Under the pieces are notes generated by a model that had not been told where the DNA came from, ran no database searches, and worked only from the letters and a program-made list of their open reading frames with translations. The position numbers and the translations under genes are program-made. Below, in pieces: positions 29,393 to 44,637 of a DNA stretch of 64,000 nt (position 1 is its first letter; the number at the start of each line of letters is the position of its first letter). Source of the DNA: an uncultured Chloroflexia bacterium. Its GTDB lineage: Bacteria; Chloroflexota; Limnocylindria; Limnocylindrales; CSP1-4. The stretch spans positions 416,001-480,000 of the forward strand of contig CAVTHS010000008.1 of the NCBI GenBank assembly GCA_963734535.1, in the 5' to 3' direction.

Positions 29393-29468
29393 TGGAGCGG
29401 GAGACGGGGTTCGAACCCGCGACATGCAGCTTGGAAGGCTGCCGCTCTGCCAACTGAGCTACTCCCGC
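29393..29468 (-). tRNA. tRNA-Gly (anticodon TCC)
   Basis: GCGGGAGTAGCTCAGTTGGCAGAGCGGCAGCCTTCCAAGCTGCATGTCGCGGGTTCGAACCCCGTCTCCCGCTCCA: 76 nt, full cloverleaf, encoded CCA. Confidence 0.98.
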
Positions 29469-29520
29469 TCGAGTTTGTGCTCAACTACAGCGGATAACTG
29501 TAGAATTTGGCCTCCGTCAG

Positions 29521-29549
29521 TTGACCACACCGCTCGTACAGCGGATAAT
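29521..29549 (+). promoter_or_regulatory. Sigma70-like promoter for the integrase
   Basis: TTGACC-N17-GATAAT, overlapped by one copy of the TACAGCGGATAA repeat. Confidence 0.55.
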
Positions 29550-29645
29550 ATCGCCGAAAGCGACCACTTCTGAGCGTGGGACAGCGTCAAAGCATACGCT
29601 GTGCGCTCGCTGCTGAACTCGGCCAGGGAGGCTGACTGATTCCGG

Positions 29646-30603
29646 ATGGCCAGATCGTCTCGCACGTCCCCCATCGTAGCCGAAACGAGTCGTCGGCGGC
29701 AACCGGGCTGACGATCGACGCTGCGATCGACTCGCTACCGGCTCAGCCTTCGAGCGGGCAACAAGAGCCCGGCCACGATCAAGACCTACCTCGCGGCCCT
29801 GGCCCGGTTCAGCCGGTTCCTCGCCGAGCGGGGCATGCCTCGGACCCTGCGGGCGATCCGGCGGGAGCACGTCGAGGCCTTCATCGTCGCCCTCCAGGAC
29901 GCGGGCCAACGCCCGGCGACCGTGTCGATCGCCTACCGGAGCCTCCAGCCGTTCTTCAAGTGGGCCCTCGGCGAAGACGAGATCGCCGCCTCACCGATGG
30001 AGCGGATGACGCCCCCGATCGTGCCCGAGGAGCCGCCGGCCGATACTGCGCAACGAGGAGCTCAAGGCGATCCTCGACGCGTGTGCCGGGGCCGACTTCG
30101 ACGCCCGCCGCGACACGGCGATCATCCGGCTCCTCCTCGACACCGGCATGCGGCGGGCCGAGCTCGCCGGGCTCGAGCGCGACGACATCGACATGGACCA
30201 GCAGGTCGCGATCGTGATGGGCAAGGGCCGTCGACCGCGGGCCTGTCCGTTCGGCAACAAGACCGCCCAGGCGCTCGATCGCTACCTGCGGCTTCGCGCT
30301 GGCTCATCCTCACGCGCAACGGACGGAGCTCTGGCTCGCCCCCAGGGGCGTCCTCACCGACAGCGGCGTGTTGCAGGTGCTGCGGCGCCGCGGCGCCACA
30401 GCTGGGACTCGCCGAAGCTCCACCCGCACCAGTTCCGCCACACCTACGCCCACCTCTGGCTCGCCGACGGCGGCAACGAAGGCGACCTCATGCGCCTCGC
30501 CGGCTGGAAGAGCCGCCAGATGCTCAGCCGCTACGGCGCGTCGGCGGCTGACGAGCGGGCGAGGGATGCCTACCGGTGACGGAGTCCGGGAGATCGGATC
30601 TGA
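29646..30603 (+). pseudogene. Tyrosine recombinase/integrase with several frameshifts and a late in-frame stop
   Basis: KSPATIKTY, DTGMRRAEL, GKGRRPR, HPHQFRHT, LAGWKS, MLSRYG lie in different frames; AYR*RSPGDRI*. Confidence 0.9.
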
Positions 30604-30671
30604 GCCAGGTTCCACGGTAGATCGCTCAATCCCACCGCCCCGCCGGTACGGCCCGCGTGGGTCGGAAGACC

Positions 30672-30724
30672 TATACCATCGAATGCTCATATACCACTGT
30701 GGTATAGTGGCTCTCGATGGTACA
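30672..30724. promoter_or_regulatory. Nested inverted-repeat operator upstream of AbiEi-like gene
   Basis: TATACCAC-T-GTGGTATA (30690-30706) flanked by TACCATCGA (30674) and TCGATGGTA (30714). Confidence 0.8.
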
Positions 30725-41855: not shown

Positions 41856-42091
41856 GGAGGTGAACCACCGCTGAGGAGGTGCCGCAAGCCTGATCTTCCG
41901 ACAATGATGTCCCAGTCAGATTCACCGGTCCTGAAGTGCGTACATGCGTTCGGAGCCGTGCGCGGAGGATTGTTCGCCGGTCGATGTTCTGCCGAACGGG
42001 CGACGATCGCCACTTTGTCAATCCGGAAGGGAGTCCCCCAGCAGGTCGACGAAGGCTCCTTCTGGTTGTTGTTACGAACAAGGAGTCAACA

Positions 42092-43471
42092 ATGTACAGA
42101 ACGATAGCTGCGTGGCTTCTCGTCGTCACAACCGTCGGTTCGGCGGTGACTTCACTAACGCCTTTGCGGGTGCAGGCGGGTGCACCCGACGCGCTCAGCA
42201 GCCCCGACGTGAGCCATTCAAAGACAACCGATTGCACAACCTTGACGGCTGCCGGACAACAGGATCTCGTCTGTCGCGACCTGCTGTTTCGACTCACGTT
42301 CGGCTACAACACCGACCTCGCGGTGATCAAGGCCCTGCGAGCTGATCCGGCGTCCGCGCCTTCGATCAAGACATATGGCATCGCATTGACACCCGACGAG
42401 GCCGCCGACTTCGGAGCGCGCCAGGCAGAGCAGGACATGATCGCGAACCTGCGCGAACGAGCTGCCGGCCTTGCCGGGTTCGCAGGTCTCTACGTCGACC
42501 AGGCCCATGGGGGCCAGGTCGTGCTGCTCGTGACGCCATCCGACACCGATGCGGCGGCGACGCTGTTGGCACAGGCGCAAACGCGCCTCTCAGGCCGAGT
42601 CGTCACGGCAACGCGAACGTACACAGAGCTCGAAGGCACGGCTGCCGCAATCGAAGGCCGCCGGCTTGTCATCGAGGCGGGCGGGTCCACCATCACCTAT
42701 CTCGGCATCGGCGAGGTCGAGAACCAGGTCGTCGTGGGCATCGACCCTTACTCTGAGGTCGTGGCAGCGGCTCTATGGAAGGCATTCGGAGACTCCGTCC
42801 AGACCATCGCGCGTGTGGCGCCCGAGCCTGCGACGTGCAGTCGAGACAATTGCGCCAATCCGCTGAAGGGCGGGCTGACGATCTACGACAGCGCGGGCGC
42901 GATGTGCACGTCGAACTTCGTCTACAGAGACGCGTCCAGCAACCCCTTTCTCGTGACCGCTGGCCACTGCGCATCTGGGTCGTTCCGCCACAACGGCGTC
43001 TCCATCGGGTCGACGGCGTCAGGATCCCGTCAGTGGTACGACTACTCGCCGGCGGACGCCCAGGCCATCACGATCGCCAGCGCGCAGAAGAGCAATTACG
43101 TCATGACAGATACTGGAGTACCTCCGACGCTCGATTTCGTGACCGGCCGCCGAACCAGTGACTACGTGGGAATGACGGTGTGCACACAGAGTTGGCGGGT
43201 CGGCCGCAGCTGCGGAATGATCTCCGGCATCGAGATCACGGTCTGCTACGGCGACCCGTGCTCGATCCACATCACCCATATGCGCCAGGCGACGTTCGAA
43301 GCGTACGCTGGCGATAGTGGAGGGCCTGTGTTCGACTATTGGGCGCTGGGGCTGGAAGCGACTGGAATCATGTCCGGCGCCACCTCTGACGCGCACATCA
43401 ACTACTACAGTCCGATCTGGTACGTCACCGGCGGGCGGACGCCATGTCTCAACAGCTCATGCTCGAGCTAG
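42092..43471 (+). CDS. Secreted S1 serine protease with pro-domain (alpha-lytic/streptogrisin-like; cassette 3 effector candidate)
   Basis: AAGGAG RBS, signal peptide, CTSNF, VTAGHC, ADAQ, GDSGGP. Confidence 0.9.
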   Translation: MYRTIAAWLLVVTTVGSAVTSLTPLRVQAGAPDALSSPDVSHSKTTDCTTLTAAGQQDLVCRDLLFRLTFGYNTDLAVIKALRADPASAPSIKTYGIALTPDEAADFGARQAEQDMIANLRERAAGLAGFAGLYVDQAHGGQVVLLVTPSDTDAAATLLAQAQTRLSGRVVTATRTYTELEGTAAAIEGRRLVIEAGGSTITYLGIGEVENQVVVGIDPYSEVVAAALWKAFGDSVQTIARVAPEPATCSRDNCANPLKGGLTIYDSAGAMCTSNFVYRDASSNPFLVTAGHCASGSFRHNGVSIGSTASGSRQWYDYSPADAQAITIASAQKSNYVMTDTGVPPTLDFVTGRRTSDYVGMTVCTQSWRVGRSCGMISGIEITVCYGDPCSIHITHMRQATFEAYAGDSGGPVFDYWALGLEATGIMSGATSDAHINYYSPIWYVTGGRTPCLNSSCSS

Positions 43472-43974
43472 ACGCCCGCCTGCCGGGCGCGGCGCCTCTT
43501 GCAACGGCCGCGTCGACGACGACCGGCCAGGCCTGTCGTGTCCCGTCTCTCGTCCTGCTCGTTGCGTCCATATTGGCCTCTGCAACTGCTTGCGTTGACC
43601 GGGGACCGAGCCCATCGCCCTCCCCCTCCGGATGGCCGACTAGGACGCCCTTCCCACTGCCATCCGGTGCGGTCGATGTCCCCATCCCTACTGCTTCGCC
43701 CGCGACATCCGAGCCCGCGGTCTGGGCCTGCGCAGCGTCCATCCTCGCGCCCGTGACCGTGGAATGGAACGCCGCGAGTCACGTCCTCAGTTTCGGTGGC
43801 CGCAGCCTTATTTGGCCACGGGGCTTCTCAGCACGGGAGTACAACGGCCGCCTCGAGATCGTGGAGCCGGACGGCAGCGTGATCGGCCGAGCTGGCGACC
43901 TGCTCAGCGAACTCGGCGGCGACGATGGCGGGATTTGCTCGGTGAATCTCAAGGTCTACGGGCCCGCCCAGTAG
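43444..43974 (+). CDS. Small lipoprotein (cassette 3 partner); start uncertain
   Basis: Hydrophobic stretch ending SATA-C, Pro/Ser linker, LIWPRGFSAR domain with two further Cys. Confidence 0.65.
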   Translation: MSQQLMLELDARLPGAAPLATAASTTTGQACRVPSLVLLVASILASATACVDRGPSPSPSPSGWPTRTPFPLPSGAVDVPIPTASPATSEPAVWACAASILAPVTVEWNAASHVLSFGGRSLIWPRGFSAREYNGRLEIVEPDGSVIGRAGDLLSELGGDDGGICSVNLKVYGPAQ

Positions 43975-44564
43975 GTGCCGTTGCCGCGATCCGCCCTGTT
44001 CGAGCGCGCCAACAGATGGCACCGGCCCGTGTGGAGCGTAGCGAGTCGGGTTTCGGGCCCGCCTCGAGTTGAGCACGATCCGGTGTCGCGCTCATCGTCA
44101 GCCTGGCGTCGTGTATGGCGTTAGGGAGCGCGTTACGGAGCGCGTTGAGGAGCGCGACAGTGTCGTGACCCTCAACACTCACTCGGCCCACTCGCCTCTC
44201 CCGACGTTCAGGGCGCCGAGCCGGGCCGCCCTCCCGAACAACCCTCGCGGGGGGACCGCACCGGGGGAGGTCCGTGTTCAGTAGTGCGGGCAGTACCTCA
44301 AGAGCGACGTCCCGGGCCCGCGTCCTCGGCCGAGATCCGGGGGTCTACTGGCATCCGCGCGCTTGAGTCCTGTCAGCCCTACGACCGTCCCCCGCGGCCA
44401 GTCATCTTGATCGTCGCCGAGCTGCCAGAACGCCGTGTTCGGCTCGCGAAAATTATGCGCTGAAGGCCAGTTTCACGCTCTCGGCCGCAGCGCCTAACTT
44501 GGCCAGAATCAGCCAGTTCGTGCGGGGATTCTGAGTTCAGAGCACAGCGCTCGACAAAGGGAGA

Positions 44565-44603
44565 CTTGGAAGGCTGCCGCTCTGCCAGCTGAGCTACTCC
44601 CGC
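44565..44603 (-). repeat. att site: displaced 5' half of tRNA-Gly
   Basis: GCGGGAGTAGCTCAGCTGGCAGAGCGGCAGCCTTCCAAG, 38/39 identical to the tRNA 5' half, ending just after the anticodon loop. Confidence 0.95.
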
Positions 44604-44628
44604 CCGCGGTTTCTCGAGGCGCCGAGAG

Positions 44629-44637
44629 AGCGTAGCA
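44629..44637 (-). promoter_or_regulatory. Probable original host tRNA promoter (extended -10)
   Basis: TGcTACGCT 25 nt upstream of the tRNA 5' fragment. Confidence 0.5.

Follow-up and report, generated by a model that had tools for sequence, protein, structure and literature searches.

How does a tRNA gene come to lie, whole, at the integrase end of a mobile element, with its 5' half repeated at the element's other end? Most elements that target tRNA genes carry the 3' part of the tRNA. The question is raised by a tRNA-Gly(TCC) gene in an uncultured Chloroflexia bacterium (lineage CSP1-4; assembly GCA_963734535.1, contig CAVTHS010000008.1, positions 416,001 to 480,000), which we analysed as one 64-kb stretch, here called the window and numbered from its first base. 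Very probably, positions 29469-44564 are a 15.1-kb integrative genomic island inserted with reversed polarity into the only tRNA-Gly(TCC) gene, by a tyrosine integrase acting at the anticodon-loop region. The island is a well-documented example of an already known minority mode of integration. The features at its two ends are as follows.

29393-29468, minus strand: intact, chimeric tRNA-Gly(TCC) gene, attL, with the host 3' half and the island 5' half (T allele at position 16) (ARAGORN, Rfam, allele comparison)
29430-29468, minus strand: first copy of the direct repeat, tRNA positions 1-39, ending just past the anticodon loop (repeat search)
29469-29645, no strand assigned: control region between tRNA and integrase, all of it element DNA, 94.9% identical to locus L052
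29646-30603, plus strand: tyrosine integrase gene (SAM-like N-terminal domain and Phage_integrase catalytic domain), frame broken, early stop at 30577-30579 (Pfam, PHROGs)
44458-44564, no strand assigned: conserved right arm of the element beside the crossover site (sequence comparison)
44565-44603, minus strand: second copy of the direct repeat, the displaced host tRNA 5' half (C allele), attR (repeat search, allele comparison)
44604-44637, minus strand: original host upstream region of the tRNA, with a TGCTACGCT -10-like box at 44629-44637, now directed into the island

ARAGORN identified the tRNA-Gly(TCC) gene as the sole tRNA in the window, and Rfam matched it to RF00005 with 70.4 bits; an Rfam scan of the whole island returned nothing besides it. 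The source assembly comprises 14 contigs (estimated completeness about 90%), and a check for other Gly-TCC genes, as the earlier note on this DNA had proposed, gave a count of one among its 51 tRNA genes. The repeat search paired 29430-29476 with 44565-44611. Within this pair, tRNA positions 1-39 recur upstream of the gene, on the same strand and 15.1 kb from its 5' end, with a single mismatch (29453 A against 44588 G on the plus strand) that reads in the tRNA sense as T in the intact gene and C in the fragment, at position 16 in the D loop. A 39-nucleotide repeat with one mismatch in 64 kb is far beyond chance. The repeat begins with the acceptor strand and stops one base past the anticodon loop, and is thus the 5' half, as the earlier note, drawn from the sequence alone, had described it. 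That note had also placed the intact tRNA at the integrase end, transcribed outward, and had seen the single D-loop difference; both descriptions hold. The integrase start codon at 29646 lies 177 nucleotides from the tRNA 5' end, and the gene runs in the opposite direction. The identity block shared by attL and attR ends at position 39, that is, at the anticodon stem-loop, and fits the anticodon-loop sublocation class of tRNA integration sites that Williams reportedly recognised in 2002. GC content is 0.63-0.72 in the island and 0.68-0.76 in the flanks.

On this reading, the attP site carried tRNA positions 1-39 plus the element DNA upstream of them. Integration left an intact chimeric tRNA next to the integrase gene, its 5' half from the element and its 3' half from the host, and shifted the host 5' half and its promoter box 15 kb to the island's far end, directed into the island. 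If the element excised precisely, the original gene would be restored together with its promoter. The earlier note's further suggestion, that partial deletion of the element end could silence the tRNA and stabilise the island, is speculation that no result of the analysis supports.

Empty sites and independent copies of the island

We searched 40 relatives with each window flank and retrieved three loci. In genome G023 (locus L025) the site is empty: window segments 17540-23951 and 24854-25403, about 23 nucleotides, a full tRNA and 44604-46289 are contiguous, at approximately 92% identity. Genome G010 (L026) has the identical join of a full tRNA to the right flank. Both relatives have C at tRNA position 16, as in the window's fragment, where the window's intact gene has T, and both have the box TGCTAC(G/C)CT about 25 nucleotides upstream of the tRNA, matching window 44604-44637. 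The tRNA 3' half is identical between the window and the empty-site relatives. Because these relatives join a full C-allele tRNA to the right flank, the fragment and the right flank represent the ancestral 5' half with its promoter, and it follows from the empty sites that the island brought the tRNA 5' half and all of the DNA upstream of it. The earlier note had anticipated such an empty site with the C allele, and had named 29469-29640 as sequence whose presence upstream of the tRNA in relatives would speak against it; neither G023 nor G010 has that sequence there. The allele marker has two weaknesses, which tell against reading it as a signature of the element: the island copy in L052 has C at position 16, and the T/C difference could be a later mutation. 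The T allele is also found in the related elements L056, L059 and L107.

Independent copies of both junctions were found. L052 is an 11-kb contig of a metagenome-assembled genome labelled Chloroflexi, with host flanks 76-84% identical to those of the window. Between its tRNA and abiEii, integrase gene included, L052 is 95% identical to window 29389-32623, and the 3' side of its tRNA directly adjoins the host flank (window 24918-25399). The left junction, from tRNA to integrase, is present in L052 and in contigs from four public sequencing runs (no run in the public search contained more than 0.39 of the sampled words; these four were compared as contigs). The right-hand type of junction, in which the conserved element arm is followed by a tRNA 5' half and then host DNA, is present in L027, L090 and L102. 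The right arm is 79% identical to the end of a cassette in relative G008, and its last 35 or so nucleotides are 89-92% identical to L090 and L102; both element ends are conserved across hosts.

Two explanations that do without reversed integration can be judged on these data. The repeat and the junctions might be an assembly artefact, as the earlier note had allowed, or a chance local duplication. The assembly is not error-free, with frameshifts in conserved host genes, but the left junction recurs independently in L052 and in the contigs of four public runs, the right-hand type of junction recurs in three other loci, and the repeat boundary at position 39 or 40 is common to eight other islands; we consider an artefact extremely improbable. 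Alternatively, a larger mobile unit, approximately 25404-44564, might have carried a complete tRNA-Gly and destroyed the host gene, whose 3' half was later deleted. The 4 kb on the tRNA 3' side (25404-29388) is indeed missing from G023 as well, and no host tRNA 3' half was found anywhere in G000. In L052, however, an island 95% identical to ours adjoins the host flank on the tRNA 3' side without the 4-kb segment, so that the two segments are independent. The identity of the tRNA 3' half with that of the empty-site relatives, and the clean repeat of positions 1-39 or 1-40 in eight related islands, also stand against a larger unit, which is highly improbable, if marginally less so than an artefact. 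Reversed integration of 29469-44564 is the explanation we retain.

The 4-kb segment is missing from both G023 and L052, and is therefore an independent insertion outside the island. It encodes a 1080-residue AAA_16/LuxR regulator and a 221-residue open reading frame (ORF); a paralogue of this ORF, 84% identical, lies on contig C4. At the same place G010 has about 880 unrelated bases. A search for a tRNA 3'-half repeat that might bound the segment returned only chance 7-9-mers. Further out, some 900 bases of the window (23952-24853) separate blocks that are adjacent in G023 (L025, 6410 to 6430).

Polarity across the integrase family

The C-terminal fragment of the integrase found 186 homologues of about 335 residues, with a best identity of 68%. 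An alignment of 28 of them was used to retrieve 79 loci from species-representative genomes, mostly metagenome-assembled genomes labelled Chloroflexota or Actinomycetota. In all but three of the 79 loci (76), a tRNA gene precedes the integrase match by 46-260 nucleotides. Its 5' end faces the integrase in 42 (reversed, as in the window) and its 3' end in 34 (usual). In a quick maximum-likelihood tree built from 73 integrases (internal stops excluded six of the 79), polarity needs four changes, compared with a mean of 23 for shuffled labels, and none of 500 shuffles gave a value as low; kin share polarity labels, and the result is a measure of clustering, not a rate. The island belongs to a widespread family of integrase/AbiE modules in uncultured Chloroflexota and Actinomycetota, and reversed polarity is a stable trait of whole integrase clades in that family.

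All 42 reversed loci were searched within 10 kb for a repeat of the tRNA 5' half, and 15 were searched in whole records. Within 10 kb, repeats of positions 1-39 or 1-40 lie beyond the integrase in three of the 42 (L090, L094 and L102). In whole records, repeats were found in three of the five tRNA-Val(CAC) loci (12.2, 16.8 and 14.8 kb upstream in L041, L081 and L068, respectively), in L051 (17.2 kb upstream) and in L107 (27.6 kb upstream), while the 5'-half fragment of L059 is on another contig. No 5'-half repeat was found in the whole records of L087 and L100, nor in any of five whole records from a reversed clade at tRNA-Met and tRNA-Lys genes (including L079 of G055). These searches limit how far the window's arrangement can be extended to its relatives: only eight of the 42 reversed loci have a 5'-half repeat on the same contig, and among the 15 whole-record searches seven gave no repeat and one gave a repeat on another contig. 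For comparison, 3'-part repeats starting at positions 28-33 bound nine of the 34 loci with usual polarity, within 10 kb. Since the 5'-half repeats end at 39 or 40 and the 3'-part repeats start at 28-33, the anticodon stem-loop is the core common to both.

The tRNA-Gly(TCC) gene is an integration hot spot in the genus. Fragments of its 3' half (37-59 nucleotides, one to three per genome) lie less than 7 kb from the gene in 10 of 24 genus relatives (G002, G004, G007, G011, G012, G014, G015, G018, G020 and G021), and at E <= 1e-30 no family integrase was detected in the contig region of the 3'-half islands of these ten. In G014, a family integrase faces the tRNA 5' end. G008 (L027, C26 6917-10084) has a 3.1-kb cassette, lacking an integrase, that is bounded by tRNA-Gly(TCC) and by a repeat of that gene's 5' half; it encodes an ECF (extracytoplasmic function) sigma factor and a large partner ORF. 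The repeat in this cassette extends about 30 nucleotides upstream of the tRNA (roughly 75% identity), as though the upstream DNA supplied by the element had originated from a tRNA promoter. Two other genomes hold more than one island. In the record of L068 (G043:C1 1680634-1700290), a tRNA-Val(CAC) gene lies between a 3'-type and a 5'-type island, and the genome behind the record of L051 (G046:C4) has two separate islands of the 5' type, each at a tRNA-Gly gene of its own.

Transcription of the rebuilt tRNA gene

The 15 kb upstream of the tRNA is element DNA throughout. The integrase gene, abiEi and abiEii all lie on the strand opposite the tRNA, and the first candidate ORF on the minus strand starts about 3.2 kb away. 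Because the genes nearest the tRNA run the opposite way, read-through from a cargo gene is unlikely. From the extent of element DNA and the direction of the three nearest genes, we infer that the tRNA is transcribed from element DNA, most likely from a promoter inside the 177-nucleotide spacer between tRNA and integrase.

The earlier note held that the intact gene is a chimera driven by an element promoter, TACAGT, 28 nucleotides upstream. The chimera is supported by the empty sites and the alleles. The hexamer is where the note placed it (29497-29502, minus strand, box start at -34 from the first base of the tRNA) and is the sole TANNNT within 70 nucleotides upstream, but as a promoter it is one candidate among others, candidate -10 boxes starting at -34, -82 and -128. 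Two observations weaken its case. Only six of 12 close relatives retain TACAGT; in four, its place is taken by GACAGT, GACAGG or GACGGT. Across the 42 reversed loci, TANNNT within 60 nucleotides upstream shows no enrichment over shuffles (19 observed, 17.3 expected), whereas the host-supplied upstream regions of usual loci are clearly enriched (19 of 33, 7.4 expected), mostly at -15 to -28. Contigs from an RNA library cover 29430-29807, but these may be derived from DNA and neither a start nor a strand can be read from them. Most tRNA genes of this genome are preceded by gcTAnnnT, usually starting 14-22 nucleotides before the mature end, and the host TGCTACGCT box fits this pattern. A scan for consensus promoters gave no hit on the tRNA strand at this end of the island, and none at the host's own upstream region; as it misses the latter, the scan is not sensitive enough for this genome.

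With the same island and the same polarity, the tRNA might instead be driven by TATTAT (29545-29550, minus strand, start at -82), shared with the integrase promoter, or from further upstream inside the integrase gene. TATTAT is a better -10 match than TACAGT and is the AT-rich box best conserved in the family. It overlaps, back to back, the GATAAT of the predicted integrase promoter TTGACC-17-GATAAT (29521-29549, plus strand), which is the sole consensus hit in 29300-29800 (0.0 in shuffles), and one symmetric box could fire both ways. The absence of TACAGT from six of the 12 close relatives points in the same direction, and the RNA-library contig spanning the tRNA to 29807 is a weak hint. Among the reversed loci, the bin from -61 to -80 is the one in which the largest number of loci have TANNNT, on both strands (17 and 15 of 42). 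The agreement is approximate only, since the window's TATTAT, starting at -82, falls in the adjoining bin, where the counts are 7 and 4 loci, and such counts overstate the case because related loci are not independent. On the other hand, TATTAT has no -35 match on the tRNA strand, and the position of TACAGT (-34) is close to that of the host's own box (-31). Transcription from the shared box or from within the integrase gene is a substantial possibility, though one that falls short of being probable. A promoter inside the spacer remains our reading, with TACAGT and TATTAT among the candidates for it.

Two copies of a 12-nucleotide direct repeat, TACAGCGGATAA, also lie in the spacer (29486-29497 and 29537-29548). 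Beside the tRNA, an imperfect palindrome whose arms are 7 nucleotides apart is conserved in the family. In the reversed clade at tRNA-Met and tRNA-Lys genes, the palindrome is perfect, CAGTTA-N7-TAACTG, and lies 10-30 nucleotides upstream of the tRNA (L065, L066, L074, L084, L089, L098 and L103). The palindrome and the TACAGCGGATAA repeat resemble putative protein-binding sites, and the geometry of CAGTTA-N7-TAACTG is like that of a putative recombinase core site or an anticodon-arm-like hairpin.

A wider proposal can be formulated, in which reversed polarity is the majority, clade-stable mode here, the elements have no ordinary tRNA promoter, the tRNA and the integrase share a symmetric AT-rich box, and the stranded host promoter could sense integration. 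Taken as a whole we regard it as doubtful. If it were true, host tRNA supply would be coupled to the element's own control region, and the stranded host promoter, which would read into the element's far end only when the element is integrated, would be a possible integration-sensing switch.

Cargo, integrase gene and relation to known systems

Island ORFs were scanned with Pfam, NCBIfam, PADLOC and PHROGs. Beyond the integrase gene, the island contains the following.

30717-31763, plus strand: AbiEi-like antitoxin/regulator gene, interrupted by indels (PF09952, E 5.1e-05, weak)
31751-32587, plus strand: AbiEii-like nucleotidyltransferase toxin gene, no indels relative to L052 (PF08843, E 3.2e-05, weak)
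33008-33673, minus strand: ORF with a Phd/YefM antitoxin domain (domain scans)
34095-36355, minus strand: two-component system, LuxR-type response regulator (34095-34733) and histidine kinase (34721-36355) (domain scans)
37978-41848, no strand assigned: cargo with no assigned function, including a duplicated segment (repeat and domain scans)
41936-43471, plus strand: ORF for a trypsin-like/alpha-lytic-type serine protease (weak Pfam match)
44008-44185, no strand assigned: non-coding block with three tandem 11-nucleotide units, GGAGCGCGTTn (about 86% identity in L051 and L059)

The integrase matched PF13495 (Phage_int_SAM_4; E 5.8e-12, 29712-30020), PF00589 (Phage_integrase; E 2.4e-25, 30010-30579) and PHROGs family phrog_1, integrase (E 1.4e-30). 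The columns of R186, K210, H277, R280, W303 and Y312, which we take to be the catalytic Arg, Lys, His-x-x-Arg, His/Trp and Tyr, are invariant in the family alignment, and the corresponding motifs are recognisable both in the frames of the window and in L052's intact ORF. Relative to that 318-residue ORF, the window's gene has five frame changes, all insertions, at 29692 (+2), 29734 (+1), 30040 (+1), 30298 (+1) and 30407 (+2); those at 29692 and 29734 are absent from the contigs of all four public runs. Identity to L052 is 96.4% for the integrase and 95-96% for abiE, so that the integrase carries the fewer substitutions. In L052 abiEi is one uninterrupted ORF; the window's copy is broken by a -1/+1 pair of indels near 30927 and 31029, whereas 31035-32623 shows no indels relative to L052. 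The integrase is not a clear pseudogene on this evidence, because conserved host genes are frameshifted too. Relative to intact copies in G023 and/or G010, frameshifts occur at 45468, in a 258-residue glyoxalase-like protein, and at about 50208-50215, in a protein of 810 residues in G010, which suggests either indel errors in the assembly or a pseudogene-rich genome. For the broken integrase and abiEi, a true pseudogene and an assembly error are about equally probable. As both frames are broken, the copy in this assembly may be immobile.

The adjacent AbiEi- and AbiEii-like genes have weak Pfam matches only, and PADLOC found no defence-system match for the cargo, this pair included. Several island ORFs had no matches and some are duplicated: 37981-38280 and 41186-41485 are 95% identical, and the ORFs 38101-38643 and 41306-41848 are paralogous. 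A segment of 240-300 nucleotides occurs three times in the island (36228-36463, 37978-38280 and 41183-41485; 84-95% identical), with one copy overlapping the N-terminus of the histidine kinase gene. The GGAGCGCGTTn units look like candidate iterons or a regulator-binding site; in L051 and L059 the block that contains them follows abiEii. The island is not a prophage. No phage structural, packaging or lysis genes were found, PHROGs matching only the integrase, antitoxin and two-component proteins among 20 island ORFs, and the Pfam scan of island ORFs returned no phage families. Nor did the Pfam and NCBIfam matches include a relaxase, coupling protein or type IV secretion component, although ORFs shorter than 80 residues and frameshifted genes could escape these scans.

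The earlier note's view of the polarity as unusual stands in so far as this is a minority mode; it overrated the rarity, as the mode is already in print and catalogued. In Table 1 of the Islander study, a 5' tDNA fragment is recorded for 159 of 3919 islands (4%), and the site is anticodon-centred in 2083 (Hudson, Lau and Williams, 2015; PMC4383910). Our island resembles the 5'-fragment islands described there, with an intact tDNA, a 5' fragment upstream on the same strand and the integrase between them. In contrast to the 4% of that catalogue, 42 of the 76 tRNA-adjacent loci of the present integrase family are reversed; the catalogue was built on genomes available in 2012 (PMC4383910) and is probably without these uncultured lineages. 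Recombination at the 5'-distal part of tRNA genes is called 'considerably less frequent' by Krupovic et al. (2019; PMC6563490), who in that passage cite five earlier 5'-distal reports (Zhao and Williams, 2002, and four archaeal ones) and add CalSub-E1 in tRNA-Ser. The archaeal elements treated there have the same polarity as ours, but some of their integrases split their own gene, whereas the present integrase gene lies wholly on one side of the att site (PMC6563490). The first of the five, cited there for 5'-distal recombination, bears the title 'Integrative element with reversed target-gene orientation' (Zhao and Williams, 2002; J Bacteriol 184:859-860).

The present island shares its anticodon-loop core with ordinary 3'-type islands, both at tRNA-Gly(TCC) and in the integrase family, and is their mirror image, since they leave the host's 5' half and its promoter undisturbed. 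The island of Zhao and Williams reportedly replaced the 5' part of a tRNA and its upstream region, not the 3' part; it differs from ours in host group and tRNA, and presumably in integrase lineage. In a limited literature search we found no description of promoter-replacing tRNA integration and no statement of a majority, clade-bound reversed polarity or of a missing tRNA promoter signature. What may be new relative to the published record is the predominance of reversed polarity in this family, bound to clades, in elements without the ordinary tRNA promoter signature.

The known picture of tRNA-site integration is unchanged by this locus. The upstream regions supplied by the elements are without the clear -10 signature of host tRNA promoters, and the transcription of the rebuilt tRNAs is accordingly not obvious. 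Judging by the family survey, integration the wrong way round would seem to be common in some little-studied lineages of soil and freshwater, in which tools and intuition based on the 3' rule would misplace island borders. At the locus itself, the empty sites and the allele marker show that an essential, single-copy tRNA gene can come under the control of mobile DNA.

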